Shown: piece by piece, positions 30,668 through 38,538 of the stretch
Position numbering within the stretch: the first letter of the stretch is position 1
How the letters are laid out: every line of letters begins with the position of its first letter
DNA from: an uncultured Desulfovibrionales bacterium
GTDB lineage: Bacteria; Desulfobacterota; Desulfovibrionia; Desulfovibrionales; Desulfonatronovibrionaceae
Direction: 5' to 3'
Length of the DNA stretch: 64,000 nt
Assembly (NCBI GenBank): GCA_964614055.1
Contig: CAZTKE010000001.1
Coordinates: 6,349-70,348 of the forward strand
Notes under the pieces: model-generated
Told to the model about the DNA's origin: nothing
Seen by the model: the letters and a program-made list of their open reading frames with translations, nothing else
The model's database searches: none
Program-made: the position numbers and the translations under genes

Positions 30668-32986
30668 TCACGATTTTTCCGCTTTATCCGCCTTGAATAC
30701 CTGCACTCCCTGCGGGGAATCAACAAGCCTGAAGCCGCGCTCAAGCAGCTTATCCCTTATATCGTCCGCCCGGGAGAAATCCTTTTTTTGCCTGGCCTCT
30801 TCCCTCCGGGCGATCATTTCCCGGATCTCGCTGCTCAGACGGGAGAAAACAAAGGGCACATTCCCCCAATCCAGAATGCACAGGACCTTATCCATTTCCT
30901 TCAGGGCATTTATGAGCACCTTTTGTTCTTCGGCGCTCATCCCGCTTTGATCCACCAGCTTGTGTACGGTCCGGGTCAACCGGAAAAGGACCGGCCAAAA
31001 GCCCTGCAGGCTCAAGTCCTCTTCCATGCTTTTTTTTAACTCTGATTTGAGATCAAAAACCGCCTGATCCACCTCCGATCTGAGCCCGCCTTCTTTTTCC
31101 GGGCGCAAGGCGTTTAATTTGACCAGCATGTCCTGGACCCGCTTCCAGTTGCGATGCCACATATGCAGGTTCTTTTCCCCGGAAACCAGTGGCTTGTGAT
31201 AGGAAGTGGACAAAAACCACATGCGCAGGGGCGGAAAGCCGCCGCAGTCAACGGCCAGATCGCGCAGATCCCGTTTTTCCTCGGTTCCGGATTCGTCCAC
31301 CACCGGATAGGAAACCGCCCAGGCCTGGGCCTGGATGCGCAAAGCGGAACTCCAGATGCTGCGCAGGTTGTCCAGATGAGGGAATATATGCGGCTGCCCG
31401 CCCAGGACCAAAAGTATCTGCCCCAAATGATCAGCCGCGGCAGCAGCCTGCTGCAAATACCAGGTGGGACGGACGTTGCCCCATTTGGTCTTGACCACGC
31501 TGCCTTCCTTTAAATCCTGGAGAGTGGCCCGCTTGAGCAGGGTGAAATCCCGGGGATTACCCTTGTCATAGCTTTCCAGATCCACTGTCTTACCGGAAAG
31601 CAACTTTTCCGGATCCATCCGGGCCAGGCCGCCATATTCATTATCCCGGCGCACATCGTAATAAACCGAGCGCAAACGCTCATAAGCAAGCCCCTTGGAA
31701 AGGAGACGGTCGCACAGGTCAACGGCCGTATCCATGCACCCGGCATCAGAGACGAAGCGGACCTGTTCATGCACCCCGAGATCCGCGGCCAGGGCATAGA
31801 CTTCCTCAAGTTTTTGGCGACTGAACGCATCCCTGGAGAGCCCCATGCCGCGTCCGGCCTGAAGAGTGCGGTCGTCAAAATCAGCCATGCCCAAAACAGC
31901 GGCCGGCCGCAAACCCTTTTGGTCCAGATACCTCTTCAGCACATCCAGAAAAATTATCCTGCGCCATGCTTCCGGGCAGCCGATATTGTCCAGACTGGGG
32001 CCGAAGCTGAAAAGACCGGCTTCCCGGGACTCGGATTCCAGATAAACCTTCTTGCGGGAGGCGATGTCCCACAGGGCCACGCCCTGCCGACTGGGTTCGA
32101 CAAAAAGTGAAGTACTCAGATAGCGATCTCCCCCGTCCGGAAAGATGGTCACGATTTTTCCGTTTTCAATCTCCCCGGCCAGTTTCAGGGCCCCGGCCAG
32201 AGCGGCGCCGGAACTCATACCCACAAAAATGCCTTCCTCCCGGGCCAATCTGCGGCATGTCTCAAATGCATCTTCATCCTGGACATGGATGATCCCGTCC
32301 AGAAGCTTTTTGTCATATATGCCCGGAGGATAGGATTCGTGCATATTTTTAAGCCCCTGGATCTTGTGTCCGGCATAAGGCTCGATCCCGATTACCTTGA
32401 TCCGGGGATTGTATTCCTTGAGCCGCTTGTTCAGGCCCATCACGGTTCCGGTAGTCCCCATGCATGCCAGGACGTGGGTAACCTCTCCTGCGGTATCCTC
32501 CCATACCTCCGGAGCTGTTCCTTGATAATGGGCATCAATGCTGGCCGGGTTGTTGTATTGATCCATAAGCACATATTTTTCCGCCTCCTCCCGCCCCAGC
32601 CGGTAGGCCTCCTCTATGGCCCCGTCCGTACCCAGATGACCGGGTGTAAGCTCTATTTCCGCGCCGTAAGCCCGCATTATCCGCTTTCTTTCCTCGGAGG
32701 CGGAAGAAGGCATAATCAGCTTTAGTTTGTATCCCTTAATCGCACAAACCATGGCCAGCCCGATACCGGTATTGCCGGAAGTGGCCTCCACCACGGTCTT
32801 GTCCGGGGTAAGCTCCCCGGACCTCTCCGCGGCCTCGATCATGCTCAGGGCCACCCGATCCTTGATGGAACCACCGGGGTTATTCATCTCCAGCTTGGCC
32901 TGTATGGATACGTCCACGTACGGATTAAGCCGGGAAATATGTACCAAGGGGGTTTTACCTATAAGTTCGATTACGCTGTCTTTCAA
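30668..32986 (-). CDS. Fusion protein: cysteine synthase (CysK/CysM-type PLP enzyme) plus CysRS-like domain with degenerate catalytic motifs
   Basis: aa 1-295 have GGSIKDR (PLP Lys), TSGNTG and GMSSGA. aa ~303-772 are collinear with class I cysteinyl-tRNA synthetase (ADFDDRTL, LLSKGLAYE, NPRDFTLLKR, GGQPHIFPHLDN, LRMWFLSTSYHKPL, C-terminal ADDIRDKLLERGFRLVDSPQG). HIGH, KMSKS and most Zn ligands are replaced. Confidence 0.8.
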   Translation of the reverse strand: MKDSVIELIGKTPLVHISRLNPYVDVSIQAKLEMNNPGGSIKDRVALSMIEAAERSGELTPDKTVVEATSGNTGIGLAMVCAIKGYKLKLIMPSSASEERKRIMRAYGAEIELTPGHLGTDGAIEEAYRLGREEAEKYVLMDQYNNPASIDAHYQGTAPEVWEDTAGEVTHVLACMGTTGTVMGLNKRLKEYNPRIKVIGIEPYAGHKIQGLKNMHESYPPGIYDKKLLDGIIHVQDEDAFETCRRLAREEGIFVGMSSGAALAGALKLAGEIENGKIVTIFPDGGDRYLSTSLFVEPSRQGVALWDIASRKKVYLESESREAGLFSFGPSLDNIGCPEAWRRIIFLDVLKRYLDQKGLRPAAVLGMADFDDRTLQAGRGMGLSRDAFSRQKLEEVYALAADLGVHEQVRFVSDAGCMDTAVDLCDRLLSKGLAYERLRSVYYDVRRDNEYGGLARMDPEKLLSGKTVDLESYDKGNPRDFTLLKRATLQDLKEGSVVKTKWGNVRPTWYLQQAAAAADHLGQILLVLGGQPHIFPHLDNLRSIWSSALRIQAQAWAVSYPVVDESGTEEKRDLRDLAVDCGGFPPLRMWFLSTSYHKPLVSGEKNLHMWHRNWKRVQDMLVKLNALRPEKEGGLRSEVDQAVFDLKSELKKSMEEDLSLQGFWPVLFRLTRTVHKLVDQSGMSAEEQKVLINALKEMDKVLCILDWGNVPFVFSRLSSEIREMIARREEARQKKDFSRADDIRDKLLERGFRLVDSPQGVQVFKADKAEKS

Positions 32987-33251
32987 AATGCTGTCCTTTT
33001 AGGTCCAAAAATCAATTGAAAACAAGCCAATATAAAAGTACAAAAACAGAATATAAGTTAACCCATTTTTTGAGCACAGGCAATTAAGGACAAGCCGGGT
33101 CCTATAAATGAGGTTAACACGACAGGTATAAAAACAAGGTCGGGAGATAAGGCTGCAGTATCCAATCGAAATGCGCGGATAATACACCGGCACGAGCCAA
33201 TCCGCTTTTTGGATTAATCCCCAAAACACGACTGCACACAGAGATAAAGAC

Positions 33252-34394
33252 ATGACCCAGCAGGCACACCAACCGTTCCCGGAAAAGATCCCGGGGGAAG
33301 TAAGCGAAAAAGATGAAAAATTCTTTCTTTTTGCCACCTCGGAAGATCTGACCCCGGAACAGATCAAAAGGATCAAGGCCCCGACCAGGATAGTCCCGGA
33401 GCAAAGAGCGGCCCTGGCCACTCACTGGCATCCGGAATTCGTGCCTGTTGACCTTGCAGTAGAACGGATGCAGGCCATGTTCCCCAATCTTGAAGAGGCA
33501 CTGATCATTCCCACTCAGCACAATGAACTTCTGAGTTACAGGGGATACAGCGGTGTGGAGGTGGATTGCTACTCCAAGGGATTCAACCAGAAAGTGCAGC
33601 TTCTGCTGCATTTTGAAAAAGACCGGGTGGAGAATGCTTCCCGGCTCAGGTCCATTCTGGAGCATACCCGGAAATACAGGGCCACCCAGCTATTTGAATT
33701 CATCCGGGCCGTAAACGATGAAAACGGAAACAAAGTAGAAAAGGCGGTGCGGGAAACCGGGGCCGGAAAAGAAATAGTGAATTTTACCCGAATTTATGTG
33801 CGAAAAATTGAAAGACTAATCCAAAAACACCACTCTTCCCTGCCTGCAAACAGCCTGAAGAACAAATTGCTGCGCAATTTCTTCCATCATCTGCGTCAGG
33901 ATTATCCGGATCCGTTCATAGACAGGGTGCAGATATTTCTGAAAACAATCAAAAACATGGTCAAGGCGGATTTCAATCTGGACTATTTTTATCGCACCTC
34001 GGAGATAATAGAAGAGGCCCGCCTGCACGGAGGAGGAATCGTGATCCCCCATCCGGAACAATTCTGGCCCATCCTGCTTGCAGAATACGACGTGGACGGC
34101 TACGAGGTATGGAACCCCCAATCACAGAGATATACAGAATTCCTCATATCCGTGGTCAATCGCAAAAATAAAGAAAAAAAACACCTGCAAAAGGAAATCC
34201 TCATCTTTATGGGAGACGACACGCACATGGGGGAAAAGGCAATGCATGCCGCCTATCAGGACAAGAAAAAAGCGGAACGGGAAATCGGCTGCCAACCGGC
34301 CTGGGAGGATCCGAATATCAAAAGGAAACTTGACTCCGCCGGGATAACCCGGACAAGTGTAATTGAGAGGTACAAACAGCGTTTAGCCGGCTGA
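33252..34394 (+). CDS. Divergent PHP-like metal-dependent phosphoesterase (first gene of the GAK-type cassette)
   Basis: ATHWHPEF (HxH), GGIVIPHPEQ and IFMGDDTHMGE follow the order of PHP-domain ligand motifs, with a long helical insert between them. Confidence 0.45.
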   Translation: MTQQAHQPFPEKIPGEVSEKDEKFFLFATSEDLTPEQIKRIKAPTRIVPEQRAALATHWHPEFVPVDLAVERMQAMFPNLEEALIIPTQHNELLSYRGYSGVEVDCYSKGFNQKVQLLLHFEKDRVENASRLRSILEHTRKYRATQLFEFIRAVNDENGNKVEKAVRETGAGKEIVNFTRIYVRKIERLIQKHHSSLPANSLKNKLLRNFFHHLRQDYPDPFIDRVQIFLKTIKNMVKADFNLDYFYRTSEIIEEARLHGGGIVIPHPEQFWPILLAEYDVDGYEVWNPQSQRYTEFLISVVNRKNKEKKHLQKEILIFMGDDTHMGEKAMHAAYQDKKKAEREIGCQPAWEDPNIKRKLDSAGITRTSVIERYKQRLAG

Positions 34395-34441
34395 GCAGAC
34401 GGCTAGAACTGTCCAAAAAAATTTACAAGGCTGGAGAATGC

Positions 34442-34720
34442 ATGTCCAAGAAACAAAATTTCTTTCACGAATCCATTCAGGACACACAGTCAATAAAAAA
34501 ATTCCTGGAGGCCCTGCAAGAAGGACTGGAAAAAGGCAGCCTGCATCTCTCCGGGCCATCGGAAAACATTGACCTTTCCCCGCAAGGTCTTTTGAATTTT
34601 ACTGTAACCGCCCGGAAAAAGGAGGATTCCAACAAAATATCCCTTGAAATCGAATGGAAAGACTCCAAGGACAGCGAACTCACATCCACCGCTCCAGTAC
34701 AGATAACCTCATCCGGATAA
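34442..34720 (+). CDS. Amphi-Trp domain mini-protein (92 aa)
   Basis: GGAG RBS 6 nt upstream. Alternating polar/non-polar strand KISLEIEWKDSKD around the single Trp. No enzymatic motif. The family name is from memory. Confidence 0.6.
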   Translation: MSKKQNFFHESIQDTQSIKKFLEALQEGLEKGSLHLSGPSENIDLSPQGLLNFTVTARKKEDSNKISLEIEWKDSKDSELTSTAPVQITSSG

Positions 34721-34729
34721 AAACAATTC

Positions 34730-36376
34730 ATGATCTCTTTTGAAACAATACAGGAAAACTTTTATTTCATGGTCCTGGAAGTAAAAAATCAGGTATACAA
34801 CACCTTTGATTTCCTGAACTCCCCGGAACCGGAGCTGTACGAGAAAATAATCTCCAAGGACGACTACATAGACAACCTCAAAAATGTAATTGAAAGCAAA
34901 TGCTTTTCCAGGATTCTGCCCTCTTCCGGACTAATAAAAAAAGAAATCAATAAAATCCGGGCAATTCATACCATAACCGTGAATCTGGAAAGGATCGGGG
35001 ACTTTTGCGTGAATGTAGCCGAGCAGATGAAATACCTGAGCGACTACAAGGTCCTGTACGGATTTGATTATGATGAAATGCTCACGGAAATAGTTCGGGG
35101 GCTTTCCAATATAAATGCGGCCATGCGCAAAAACGACCTGTCCCTTACCCTGGATATCTGTCGCACGGAAAACAACCTGGACAAGCTATACAAAATCCAC
35201 CTCGACCGCATCCTGGAAGAACTTTCCGAAAACCGGACCCATCCCGGGGATTATGTCACCATACTTTTCATGATCCGGTACCTGGAACGCATAGGCGACT
35301 CCCTCTTGAACATTGGGGAAGCCATCCTATTCAATATCATTGGAGAAAAGATCAAAATCAACCAGTTCCAGGCCCTGCAGCAGAATCTGGATCAGAGCGG
35401 ATTTGACGCTCCCATATCCGAGGTGGACTTCCAGGGGATATGGGGAACAAGGTCCGGATGCCGGATAGGAAGAATTGAGGACAAGCAGCATCCGGACAGC
35501 GCCCTGGGAAGCATTTTCAAGGAGGGGTCCAGGGAAAAAATATCCAGGGAAAGGGAAAACCTTAATCTCTGGCAGGAAAAATTCCCCGGGCTAGTGCCCA
35601 GGGTATTCAGTTATCAGCAAAGTAAATCCGAAGACAAGGCCTCCATGCTGATTGAATTCCTCCCCGGGTGCACTCTGGACGAGGAAATACTCACCTCTGA
35701 GCTGGACACGCTAAAAATAGCCTATGCCGGTCTTGAAAAAAAACTGACCCGGATATGGGAGGGCACGCTCAGAAAGGAAAAAGCTCCCACAAACTACGTG
35801 GAACAATTTCGAGCCAGGATGGATTCGGTCCTCCAGGTCCATCCGGGATTCAGCCGCAGGGAGCAAACCATACAAAGCGTCCGGATAAGATCACTGGAAA
35901 ACCTTCTAAAAAAAGCGGCCCACCTGGAGACAAGGCACCCCTCCCCTGTAAGTGTTTTCATTCACGGGGATTTCAATATAAACAATATTGTCTATGAACA
36001 CCGGGAGAATACCGTGCATTTCATAGACCTGCACCGTTCCCGGCAATATGATTACATCCAGGATGTATCCGTGTTTCTGATCTCCAATTTCCGGATGCCA
36101 ATATTTGATTCCAGTCTGCGGCGGCGCCTTAACTGGGTGACTAGAAAATTTTATTCCTTTGCCCGGGCATTCGCGGAAAAACACGGGGATACCACGTTTG
36201 ATGCCAGATTGTCCCTGGCCCTGGCCAGATCGTTTTATACCTCCACCCGTTTTGAACTCAACCATTTATTCGCAAAAGAGATGTTCCTTCGGGCTCAATA
36301 TCTTCTGGATCAACTATTGGCTCCGGAGCGGAAATGGTCCGAATTCAGGATGCCGCAAGAAATCCTTTTTTACTGA
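34730..36376 (+). CDS. PhoU-domain / APH-type phosphotransferase (kinase) fusion protein
   Basis: Two PhoU-like helices are present (ERIGDFCVNVAEQM, ERIGDSLLNIGEAI). The C-terminal half has a kinase core (FIHGDFNINNIV ... VHFIDLHRS) as in aminoglycoside/choline kinases. Confidence 0.7.
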   Translation: MISFETIQENFYFMVLEVKNQVYNTFDFLNSPEPELYEKIISKDDYIDNLKNVIESKCFSRILPSSGLIKKEINKIRAIHTITVNLERIGDFCVNVAEQMKYLSDYKVLYGFDYDEMLTEIVRGLSNINAAMRKNDLSLTLDICRTENNLDKLYKIHLDRILEELSENRTHPGDYVTILFMIRYLERIGDSLLNIGEAILFNIIGEKIKINQFQALQQNLDQSGFDAPISEVDFQGIWGTRSGCRIGRIEDKQHPDSALGSIFKEGSREKISRERENLNLWQEKFPGLVPRVFSYQQSKSEDKASMLIEFLPGCTLDEEILTSELDTLKIAYAGLEKKLTRIWEGTLRKEKAPTNYVEQFRARMDSVLQVHPGFSRREQTIQSVRIRSLENLLKKAAHLETRHPSPVSVFIHGDFNINNIVYEHRENTVHFIDLHRSRQYDYIQDVSVFLISNFRMPIFDSSLRRRLNWVTRKFYSFARAFAEKHGDTTFDARLSLALARSFYTSTRFELNHLFAKEMFLRAQYLLDQLLAPERKWSEFRMPQEILFY

Positions 36377-36395
36377 AAATAAAAAGAGGCAATAA

Positions 36396-37271
36396 ATGCG
36401 CATAGGAGTTGTCGGGACCATCGGCGGATGGTCCTCGGAAAAACTGGCGGACGCGGTGCAAGACCTCACCGGATACCGGCTTTTAGTGGATATGGATCGG
36501 TTTTCCCTTGATCTCGATTCTAAAAAGGCCTTTTTTAAGGACATGGACCTGAGCCGGCTGGATGCCCTGATCATAAAGAAAGTCGGATCCAAATACTCCT
36601 CCAGTCTGCTGGATCGTCTGGAGTGCCTGCGTTTTTTGCACGAATCCGGCCTGCCCGTATTTTCCGCGCCGGGCAGCATAATGCGGGTTCTAAACAGACT
36701 CAGCTGCACGACAACCATGCGCCTGGCCGGCATTCCCATGCCGGAAACTACTGTTACCGAGGACATAGACACAGCCCTAAAGGCGGTGGAAAAATACGGC
36801 CAGGCCGTATTTAAGCCCCTGTATTCCACCAAGGCCCGGGGTATGGCTTTGATACAGGCGGGGCGGGGAGCCCGGGAAAAAATAGCGGATTTTAACAGAA
36901 ATAATTCGATAATGTATATCCAGAAAAAGATTGAACTAAACGGCAGGGATCTGGGACTGGCTTTTCTGGGCGGCAAATACCTGGCCACCTACTCCCGCTT
37001 AAAACAGAATTCCTCCTGGAACACGAGCACGGTAAACGGCGGCAAATACGCCTTCTGCGAACCAAGCCGGGAGAGCATTGACGTGGCGGAAAAAGCCCAG
37101 TCGCTGTTTTCCCTGGATTTTACATGTGTGGACGTTGCACAGACCGCAAGCGGCCCGGTTGTATTTGAAGTCTCCGCCTTCGGTGGTTTCAAGGGAATTC
37201 AGGAAGCCTGCGGACTGGACGCGGCAAAATTGTATGTCCAGTATGTACTAAAAAAACTGCACTCGGGCTGA
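36396..37271 (+). CDS. RimK-like ATP-grasp ligase
   Basis: 291 aa. Layout and blocks (VFKPLYSTKARGM, MYIQKKIE, DFTCVDVA..GPVVFEVSAFGGFKG) resemble the RimK/GshB-type ATP-grasp. Confidence 0.7.
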   Translation: MRIGVVGTIGGWSSEKLADAVQDLTGYRLLVDMDRFSLDLDSKKAFFKDMDLSRLDALIIKKVGSKYSSSLLDRLECLRFLHESGLPVFSAPGSIMRVLNRLSCTTTMRLAGIPMPETTVTEDIDTALKAVEKYGQAVFKPLYSTKARGMALIQAGRGAREKIADFNRNNSIMYIQKKIELNGRDLGLAFLGGKYLATYSRLKQNSSWNTSTVNGGKYAFCEPSRESIDVAEKAQSLFSLDFTCVDVAQTASGPVVFEVSAFGGFKGIQEACGLDAAKLYVQYVLKKLHSG

Positions 37272-37276
37272 ATCTT

Positions 37277-38473
37277 ATGTGCGCAAATATATGGATGAAC
37301 CGGGAAATCCGGATCCCGGACGGATATAAACTGGCCCGGTTCAAGGGCTCGCCCGAGCTTGGCCCGAAAATCCTTTTTTTCAGCGGCGGTTCCGCACTGA
37401 AAGGCGTCAGCCAAAAAATCACCGCCTACACCCACAACTCCGTACACATAATTACTCCCTTTGATTCCGGCGGGAGTTCTGCGGTTCTGCGCAAGGCATT
37501 CGATATGCCCGCTGTCGGGGATATCCGCAACAGACTTTTGGCTCTGGCGGACAAAACCATGACCGGAAACCCGGAAATTTTCGCTCTGCTTGGGCACAGA
37601 CTGCCGGCCGATGAAAACCAGGAAGAACTCAGGCGGACACTCCGGGATATGGTCCGGGGCAAACACGGTTTAGTTCGTTCCGTTCCCGAGCCAATGCAGA
37701 AAATAATCCGGCATTATCTGGAAATTTTCTCTGAAAACATGCCTGCAGATTTTGACCTGCGCGGGGCAAGCATCGGCAATCTCGTCCTTACCGGGGGATA
37801 CCTGGAAAACAAAAGGAACCCGGATTCGATCATCTATATCTTTTCCCAATTGGTGAAAGCAAAAGGCACGGTTCGCCCGGTGGTTAACCGCAGCCTGCAC
37901 CTGGGAGCGCGCTTGGAAGACGGGGAAATCGTTAGCGGACAACACAGAATAACCGGCAAGCAAACCCCCAAAATCAGTCAGCAGATAAAGGACATATTCC
38001 TGGTGCGGGATCTGAACAGCAAACAGCCTGTAAAAGCCGATATCCGAGAAGAAATAGCCCTGGAAATAAGCCGGGCGGATCTGATTTGTTATCCGATGGG
38101 CAGTTTTTTCACCAGCATCCTGGCTAATCTGCTCCCCTCAGGAGTAGGCCGGGCCATAAAAAATGCGCGCTGCCCCAAAATATTTATCCCCAATACCTTT
38201 TTTGACCCGGAATGCTATGCGCTGCCCCCGGCAAATCAGATAGATCGCCTTTTGGAGATTTTGGGCCGCGACTGCCCCGGGTCCGGCCAAAAAACCGATT
38301 TTTTGGATTTAATTCTTCTAAACCGGGACTATTCCCTGTACCCGGGCGGGGTAGACAGGGAAAAGATCTCCGGCTTGGGATCAAGAATCCTGGAATACGA
38401 TCTGGTCACCGAACAATCTAAACCGGGGATTGATCCGGAAAGACTCTGCGAAGTACTGCTTTCCCTGTGCTAA
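37277..38473 (+). CDS. CofD/YvcK-like (2-phospho-L-lactate transferase family) protein
   Basis: FFSGGSALKG, FDSGGSSAVLRK, VGDIRNRLLAL, IGNLVLTG and YPMGSFFTSILANLLP match the CofD/YvcK signature blocks in order. Confidence 0.75.
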   Translation: MCANIWMNREIRIPDGYKLARFKGSPELGPKILFFSGGSALKGVSQKITAYTHNSVHIITPFDSGGSSAVLRKAFDMPAVGDIRNRLLALADKTMTGNPEIFALLGHRLPADENQEELRRTLRDMVRGKHGLVRSVPEPMQKIIRHYLEIFSENMPADFDLRGASIGNLVLTGGYLENKRNPDSIIYIFSQLVKAKGTVRPVVNRSLHLGARLEDGEIVSGQHRITGKQTPKISQQIKDIFLVRDLNSKQPVKADIREEIALEISRADLICYPMGSFFTSILANLLPSGVGRAIKNARCPKIFIPNTFFDPECYALPPANQIDRLLEILGRDCPGSGQKTDFLDLILLNRDYSLYPGGVDREKISGLGSRILEYDLVTEQSKPGIDPERLCEVLLSLC

Positions 38474-38538
38474 ACTATCCCGGAACCTAAAATCGCACCG
38501 GGAAAACAAAAATTGCGGACATTGAGGAGCAACCGTTC

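Follow-up and report, generated by a model that had tools for sequence, protein, structure and literature searches.

The question raised by this locus is what two closely spaced genes, one encoding a CofD-like protein and the other a RimK-like ATP-grasp ligase, contribute to an organism in which the rest of the coenzyme F420 pathway is not in view. The genes are located in a stretch of 64,000 nucleotides from an uncultured Desulfovibrionales bacterium (assembly GCA_964614055.1, contig CAZTKE010000001.1, positions 6,349 to 70,348), the whole of which is referred to here as the window. A preliminary description had named the two families, had placed the genes 5 nt apart with no other F420 genes in the 64 kb, and had proposed that the pair may assemble a phosphodiester-linked, amino-acid-capped group on an acceptor other than F420. 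Both open reading frames were found on the + strand, at 36396-37271 (291 aa) and 37277-38473 (398 aa), and the family assignments were borne out by Pfam, with 44 bits to RimK for the first and 131 bits to CofD (PF01933) for the second. The spacing was also as described, the first frame ending in TGA at 37269-37271 and being followed by the spacer ATCTT and an ATG at 37277; use of an alternative in-frame ATG at 37295 would give an inter-gene gap of 23 nt.

Comparison with NCBIfam models at their curated cut-offs gave a more specific answer. The first protein matched TIGR04356, 'GAK system ATP-grasp enzyme', with 441.7 bits over the entire model (1-287 of 287; cut-off 300 bits), and the second matched TIGR04357, 'GAK system CofD-like protein', with 516.5 bits, also over the entire model (1-368 of 368; cut-off 340 bits). 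In GAK terms, the first gene encodes the ATP-grasp ligase of the cassette and the second its CofD/YvcK-like protein; the NCBIfam set for the GAK system consists of TIGR04354 (amphi-Trp), TIGR04355 (HprK-related kinase B, here HprK-B), TIGR04356, TIGR04357 and TIGR04358 (XXXCH). The two genes form the 3' end of a co-directional five-gene cassette on the + strand (33252-38473, gaps of 5-47 nt), in which they are preceded by genes for a PHP-type phosphoesterase-like protein (33252-34394, 380 aa), an amphi-Trp mini-protein (34442-34720, 92 aa; TIGR04354 67.6 bits with a cut-off of 31, and PF20068) and a protein of 548 aa in which two PhoU repeats are fused to an APH/choline-kinase-type kinase (34730-36376; Pfam PhoU 88.5 bits, APH 42 bits). 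GAK cassettes are recognized by an ATP-grasp gene and an amphi-Trp gene in one cluster, and here the amphi-Trp gene lies two genes upstream of the ATP-grasp gene on the same strand. The system is already catalogued and both genes are already named in the databases; the copy here is an unusual reduced form and not a new kind of system. The explanation that we favor, with a probability of about 0.6, is that of a reduced GAK cassette which would carry out a phosphate-linked cycle of writing and erasing.

Enzyme cassettes of the GAK type are widespread among sulfate reducers and other anaerobic organisms. More than 4000 homologues of the CofD-like protein were recovered, all named ones being called 'GAK system CofD-like protein', and relatives were present in at least 583 species-level genomes, mainly of Desulfovibrionales and Desulfobacterales and also of Zixibacteria, Ignavibacteria and others. 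A search of the full-text literature turned up no paper on the GAK system or on amphi-Trp, XXXCH or HprK-related kinase B, and none of the five cassette proteins had a match in PADLOC, which covers anti-phage defence.

With respect to coenzyme F420, the two genes could be read as canonical cofD and cofF of a host pathway whose remaining genes lie elsewhere in the genome, a reading which can draw on the match to PF01933, on the inclusion of CofF in the RimK family and on the 65% completeness of the 1.89-Mb host assembly. When the whole assembly was searched, the canonical CofD model TIGR01819 gave no match even at E<=1, CofE and CofC were not found, and CofG reached no more than 20 bits, where the cut-off is 213; the sole CofD-family match was the window gene at 37277-38473. 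Because the assembly was merely 65% complete, relatives were tested for F420 genes too. Five complete GAK-positive genomes contained no CofE and no CofG above cut-off, and in a sample of 300 genomes of the phylum, each at least 90% complete, the GAK CofD-like gene was present in 25 and CofE in 13, with an overlap of zero. The canonical reading was rejected on these results; as far as genome content shows it is refuted already, and we regard it as virtually untenable. The cassette is unrelated to coenzyme F420. The whole-genome search for cofC, cofE and cofG suggested in the preliminary description returned nothing above cut-off, so that the absence reported for the 64 kb holds for the whole assembly, and its view that the pair is not canonical cofD/cofF is supported in the host, in the five complete genomes and in the 25 near-complete GAK-positive genomes.

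The next point is whether the two genes belong together as a pair. A survey of 80 genome loci gave a canonical order of XXXCH, PHP-like, amphi-Trp, PhoU-kinase, ATP-grasp, HprK-B (TIGR04355), CofD-like and second amphi-Trp gene. Enough upstream sequence to assess the order from the ATP-grasp to the CofD-like gene was available in 66 of these loci; the order ATP-grasp, HprK-B, CofD-like was found in 55 of them, and the ATP-grasp gene stood directly beside the CofD-like gene solely in L010 and L067. The tight adjacency of ligase and CofD-like gene is atypical for the family. Relative to the canonical cassette, the window shows the amphi-Trp, PhoU::APH and PHP-like genes in the usual order, in full synteny with the eight-gene cassettes of relatives, but has no HprK-related kinase B, no XXXCH protein and no 3' amphi-Trp gene. 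In one locus (L073:5919-7934) the CofD-like gene was directly preceded by a gene for a 671-aa protein, of which the C-terminal half contains an HprK-related kinase B domain and the N-terminal part has a weak match (38 bits) to the PhoU-kinase profile.

Gene content in the 300-genome sample pointed the same way. Ligase, HprK-B and CofD-like genes were found together in 17 genomes, the CofD-like gene alone in 8 (all 7 members of one genus plus one other), ligase and HprK-B without an intact CofD-like gene in 2 (one with a stop-riddled copy) and the ligase alone in 1; no genome combined ligase and CofD-like gene without HprK-B. The idea of a self-contained two-gene unit does not survive these counts: HprK-B lies between the genes in most assessable loci and was present in all 17 genomes that hold both, 8 of the 25 CofD-like-positive genomes had no ligase, and 3 of the 20 ligase-positive genomes had no intact CofD-like gene. 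Every one of the 20 ligase-positive genomes had the PHP-like gene, as did one other genome (co-occurrence 20/21), and therefore the tight partner of the ligase is the PHP phosphoesterase, joined, by gene order, by the PhoU-kinase and amphi-Trp. The YvcK-like gene is a detachable accessory, which some lineages drop and others keep alone. Cassettes without an intact CofD-like gene were found in G042 and G087. In the latter, a near-complete genome, a decaying cassette (G087:C6:812-7453) carries in-frame TGA and TAG stops in both the CofD-like and the PHP-like gene, with ligase and HprK-B appearing intact. The neighbors of stand-alone CofD-like genes were unrelated (SmpB/PtsI, nitroreductase, a lactate MFS transporter, TRAP, jag-mnmE).

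How the reduced form arose could be followed in the nearest relatives of the window, L002 (a Desulfonatronovibrionaceae metagenome-assembled genome) and L083, which have the same flanks, with a divergently oriented CysM-CysRS fusion on the upstream side and, on the downstream side, genes for EamA, an HD-domain protein and an RCK channel, and which contain all eight genes. The XXXCH gene is gone from the window; a remnant of this deleted XXXCH/amphi-Trp gene, some 125 nt from the leader and the initial codons, survives at 33007-33133 on the + strand, inside a 265-bp divergent intergenic region, and aligns locally upstream of and into the XXXCH start of L083 and L002 (TAACCCATTTTT...GCAATTAAGGA..GGTCC..ATG). 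At the site where these relatives hold the HprK-B gene (about 1.1 kb, TIGR04355) there is the 5-nt spacer at 37272-37276, which leaves the PhoU::APH fusion as the sole remaining kinase of the cassette. The second amphi-Trp gene (154 aa), which falls between the CofD-like gene and EamA in L002 (7353-7817) and L083 (9310-9774), is replaced by a 65-nt spacer at 38474-38538. Neither tblastn nor custom hidden Markov models (HMMs) located any of the three genes at another place in the assembly, and the NCBIfam model gave no HprK-B either. An independent ENA contig with 89% amino-acid identity to the window (L082) has the identical 5-nt junction and the same neighbors, and the reduction is therefore not a mis-assembly. 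The ratio of nonsynonymous to synonymous substitution rates (dN/dS) between the window and L082 was 0.14 for the ligase and 0.22 for the CofD-like protein, and the five retained proteins showed no excess of changes at near-invariant sites, with only F105L and D349N in the CofD-like protein; the five-gene remainder is therefore still maintained by purifying selection. The cassette of the window is naturally reduced, with three usual genes (XXXCH, HprK-B and the second amphi-Trp) cleanly deleted.

Loss of HprK-B together with XXXCH and the 3' amphi-Trp gene was considered as a general rule and rejected, as it was not repeated in other HprK-less loci; L067 has no HprK-B and no small amphi-Trp gene and retains XXXCH and the 3' amphi-Trp gene. 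The synonymous divergence (dS) between the window and L082 differed threefold in adjacent genes (ligase 0.77, CofD-like 0.26), a contrast that may point to recombination inside the cassette. In full cassettes the second amphi-Trp protein (L002:7353-7817; L047:9206-9763; L031:9227-9781) has a long disordered tail, rich in Lys, Ala and Pro and resembling histone H1, a composition that points to a polyanion, for example DNA, RNA or polyphosphate, as a possible ligand. The upstream neighbor of the cassette in the window, at 30668-32986 on the - strand, is a CysM cysteine synthase fused to a CysRS-like domain, and the same neighbor was seen in L083, L075 and L079. A scan for promoters and terminators gave nothing above shuffled expectation.

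The identity of the detachable protein was addressed by comparison with two characterized groups: YvcK/GlmR, a UDP-N-acetylglucosamine (UDP-GlcNAc)-binding regulator and accessory uridyltransferase of Firmicutes, and CofD/FbiA, the 2-phospho-L-lactate (or enolpyruvyl) transferase of F420 biosynthesis. By sequence and by predicted fold the CofD-like protein is nearer to the former. When a profile of 25 family members was searched against the PDB, the sole matches were five YvcK/UPF0052 structures (E 4e-33 to 1e-17), with no CofD or FbiA match at E<=0.01. An AlphaFold2 (AF2) model with a predicted local distance difference test score (pLDDT) of 89.5 was submitted to Foldseek and had its best match in YvcK 2o2z, with a template modeling score (TMt) of 0.85, followed by CofD at 0.63-0.66 and FbiA at about 0.55. 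Alignment by hhalign to a YvcK-type paralogue of the same phylum (L085) gave 99.4% probability and 31% identity, with every signature motif aligned, and the motifs in common with YvcK/GlmR (UPF0052; 2O2Z, 2HZB, 2PPV) are GG(T/S).L, D-x-GGSS, GD(I/V)RN, GS(L/F).(T/S)S and (P/D)(G/P)E. Unlike YvcK, the protein scored below the cut-off of TIGR01826 (118.8 bits against 196), has an N-terminal extension and a helical insert of 44 residues (114-157 in the hhalign comparison), carries an invariant Ser in place of the second Asp of the DD pair, and is encoded outside a yvcJ-yvcK-whiA operon context. With CofD/FbiA (3C3D/3C3E, 6UW1-6UW7) it has the superfamily fold in common (TMt 0.5-0.66), but identity is 11-13%, TIGR01819 is unmatched and there is no co-occurrence with CofC, CofE or CofG/H. 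Two weak TIGR04357 matches in CofE-positive genomes, L085 and L084, were considered as canonical CofD and rejected, L085 being YvcK-type and L084 another divergent branch of the CofD family. In Maridesulfovibrio (L015, L017, L046, L059) a second CofD-family paralogue was observed about 7-8 kb downstream of the cassette on the opposite strand.

The loss of nucleotide- or substrate-binding residues, which the preliminary description had named as grounds against its proposal, is not indicated by alignments of the family. D63, S64, D82, D310 and E312 were invariant in 81 CofD-like sequences and N284 was kept in 90%; by alignment, D63, S64 and N284 correspond to D40, D41 and N198 of Listeria monocytogenes GlmR, the triple mutant of which has an approximately 100-fold loss of uridyltransferase activity (PMC10128056). 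The catalytic metal of FbiA is held by Asp45 and Asp57 (PMC7253369), to which D63 and D82 are probably equivalent, as judged through the YvcK alignment, so that the metal-binding aspartate pair would be common to both by homology. Taken with these correspondences to GlmR and FbiA, the invariance of the five residues suggests that the putative nucleotide and metal site of the CofD-like protein is intact.

The likeness to YvcK also brings in the possibility that the CofD-like protein is a non-enzymatic nucleotide-sugar sensor, comparable to Bacillus subtilis GlmR/YvcK, which controls its partners, the HprK-like P-loop protein being a candidate partner in full cassettes. YvcK itself pairs with YvcJ, and in full cassettes the CofD-like gene directly follows that P-loop kinase-like gene. 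YvcK structures are the best sequence and fold matches with all signature motifs kept, the gene often survives alone beside housekeeping genes, a GT4 glycosyltransferase is among the neighbors in 10 loci, and GlmR is reported to swap partners upon UDP-GlcNAc binding (PMC7525490). Set against this are the sub-threshold YvcK score, the 44-residue insert and the UDP-GlcNAc residues Y265 and R301 of B. subtilis, which are not recognizable in what is a poorly aligned C-terminal region. In addition, the HprK-like partner is gone in the window and the CofD-like gene is still under selection, and L. monocytogenes GlmR has itself been reported to be catalytic (PMC10128056). We consider a purely sensory role unlikely.

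With respect to the ligase, the protein is a member of the RimK/LysX/MptN superfamily with the ATP-grasp fold and full-length alignment to RimK-family enzymes (MptN, CofF, RimK, LysX/ArgX), but it scored below every family cut-off (MptN 154.4 bits against 350, rimK_fam 106 against 143, LysX 83 against 276). Its best PDB matches were LysX, RimK and ArgX, with E of about 1e-14 for LysX and RimK. LysX, RimK and ArgX work on protein C-termini, the substrate of RimK being ribosomal protein S6 and that of LysX/ArgX the carrier protein LysW; MptN and CofF act on cofactor tails, to which MptN adds glutamate. Neither the comparison with solved structures (LysX, RimK, ArgX) nor the HMM comparison (MptN) settles the substrate of the GAK ligase. 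Unlike MptN and CofF, it is encoded in a genome with no F420 pathway. At the Mg-binding E-x-N site, all 61 GAK ligases have E258-V-S260, aligning to NEVN of LysX, and this E-V-S sits within an invariant block, FEVSAFGGF(R/K)G. No ligase partner with a conserved acidic C-terminus, such as the substrates of RimK and LysX have, was found.

The tight partner of the ligase, the 380-aa protein, had no match in Pfam or NCBIfam, and a PDB profile search was also empty by sequence. Its AF2 model (pLDDT 90) gave as best Foldseek matches the PHP phosphoesterases 3e0f/3o0f and RNase AM 9etk (E 2e-5, TMt 0.5). The resemblance to PHP phosphoesterases of the TrpH/YciV type (BAD_1165, 3E0F; RNase AM, 9ETK) lies in the predicted fold and in an invariant ligand pattern, HxH...H...H...DxH, made up of H58xH60, H120, H267 and D323xH325; unlike these enzymes, the GAK protein has no sequence-level family match and carries a long helical insert of about 120 residues. 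In the PhoU::APH kinase, HGDxNxxN and the D..RS loop were kept across 64 orthologues and there were no window-specific deviations. The amphi-Trp proteins have no catalytic motif and gave only a weak match, to a designed Ig-like protein, in a PDB profile search; their conserved residues are F8, S12, Q14, D15, P47, K60 and W72, with Ser12 the one conserved serine. One proteomics table ranks an amphi-Trp protein within the top 20 of Dissulfuribacter by abundance.

With these enzymes in view, the proposal closest to that of the preliminary description can be weighed: the CofD-like transferase and the ATP-grasp ligase would build a phosphodiester-linked, amino-acid-capped small molecule on a non-F420 acceptor, with kinase and PHP enzyme as steps of the pathway. 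A kinase together with a phosphoesterase suits a pathway with a phospho-intermediate, MptN is the closest characterized HMM to the ligase (154 bits), the CofD fold is kept with invariant D63 and D82 as probable counterparts of FbiA Asp45 and Asp57, and downstream of the cassette this lineage has an EamA exporter. EamA, however, adjoins the cassette in this family only. The pair is not obligate and is usually split by a protein-kinase-like gene, and the likeness to CofD on which the proposal built is outweighed by that to YvcK. The cassette also lacks a CofC-like nucleotidyltransferase that could supply an activated donor, and the proposal gives no role to the small, non-enzymatic amphi-Trp proteins, of which there are one to three. 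Such a small-molecule pathway appears doubtful to us.

A link to phosphate is drawn from the two PhoU repeats in the cassette kinase and from its surroundings in relatives. A stand-alone phoU gene adjoins the cassette in 6 of the 80 loci. In L087 (G250:C1:1443000-1452500, from the phylum sample) a lone CofD-like gene occurs in the order pstB, phoU, CofD-like, mgtE, a single case of pstB-phoU context among stand-alone CofD-like genes. The mgtE gene was also observed after the cassette in L020, L024, L039 and L054. A Pho-box-like repeat, TTGTCATTAAATCGTAACAAA, is found upstream of the cassette in L002 and L083; the direct repeat (TTGTCATTAAA / TCGTAACAAAA / ATATGCCATTA) has 11-bp phasing and lies at L002:100-135 and L083:2043-2080.

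The reading that we prefer, of a reduced GAK cassette with a phosphate-linked cycle, can be set out as follows. The target of writing and erasing would be the small amphi-Trp protein itself or a ligand carried by it. The PhoU-kinase would phosphorylate a hydroxyl, and a carboxylate would receive an amino acid from the ATP-grasp enzyme. The YvcK-like protein may bind a nucleoside diphosphate (NDP)-activated compound at its putative metal site of two conserved aspartates and either transfer a phospho-moiety or sense the compound, and the PHP enzyme would strip the phosphoester. Several observations weigh against this reading. The full-text literature yielded no biochemical or genetic work on any GAK protein. 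An amphi-Trp gene is missing from the vicinity of many stand-alone CofD-like genes, the canonical Mg-binding Asn of the ligase is Ser in every GAK ligase compared, and the C-terminal residue of amphi-Trp is variable (S 39%, E 16%, N 11%, others), with no conserved acidic end. The Pho-box-like element is absent from the shortened intergenic region of the window, where that stretch has been lost. Finally, with the assembly 65% complete, the three missing genes could sit in unassembled DNA, though their syntenic sites are empty.

In a bolder form of the same cycle, the cassette would write and erase a reversible protein mark of a kind not described before. A phosphodiester-linked group would be moved from an NDP carrier by the YvcK-like protein onto Ser12 of amphi-Trp, within F-x-x-E-S-x-Q-D; the ATP-grasp enzyme might extend it, the PhoU-kinase would gate the process by phosphate supply, the PHP enzyme would erase the mark, and the five genes of the window would be the minimal working set. 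In this specific form the proposal is quite improbable.

Hundreds of species, sulfate reducers and other anaerobes, carry the GAK cassette. The copy in the window represents a natural deletion experiment, in which five genes under selection give a smaller set to reconstitute. Gene-content statistics part a core of ligase and phosphoesterase from the YvcK-like accessory, and this split makes nucleotide-sugar binding and the modification of amphi-Trp better targets for biochemistry than F420-type assays.

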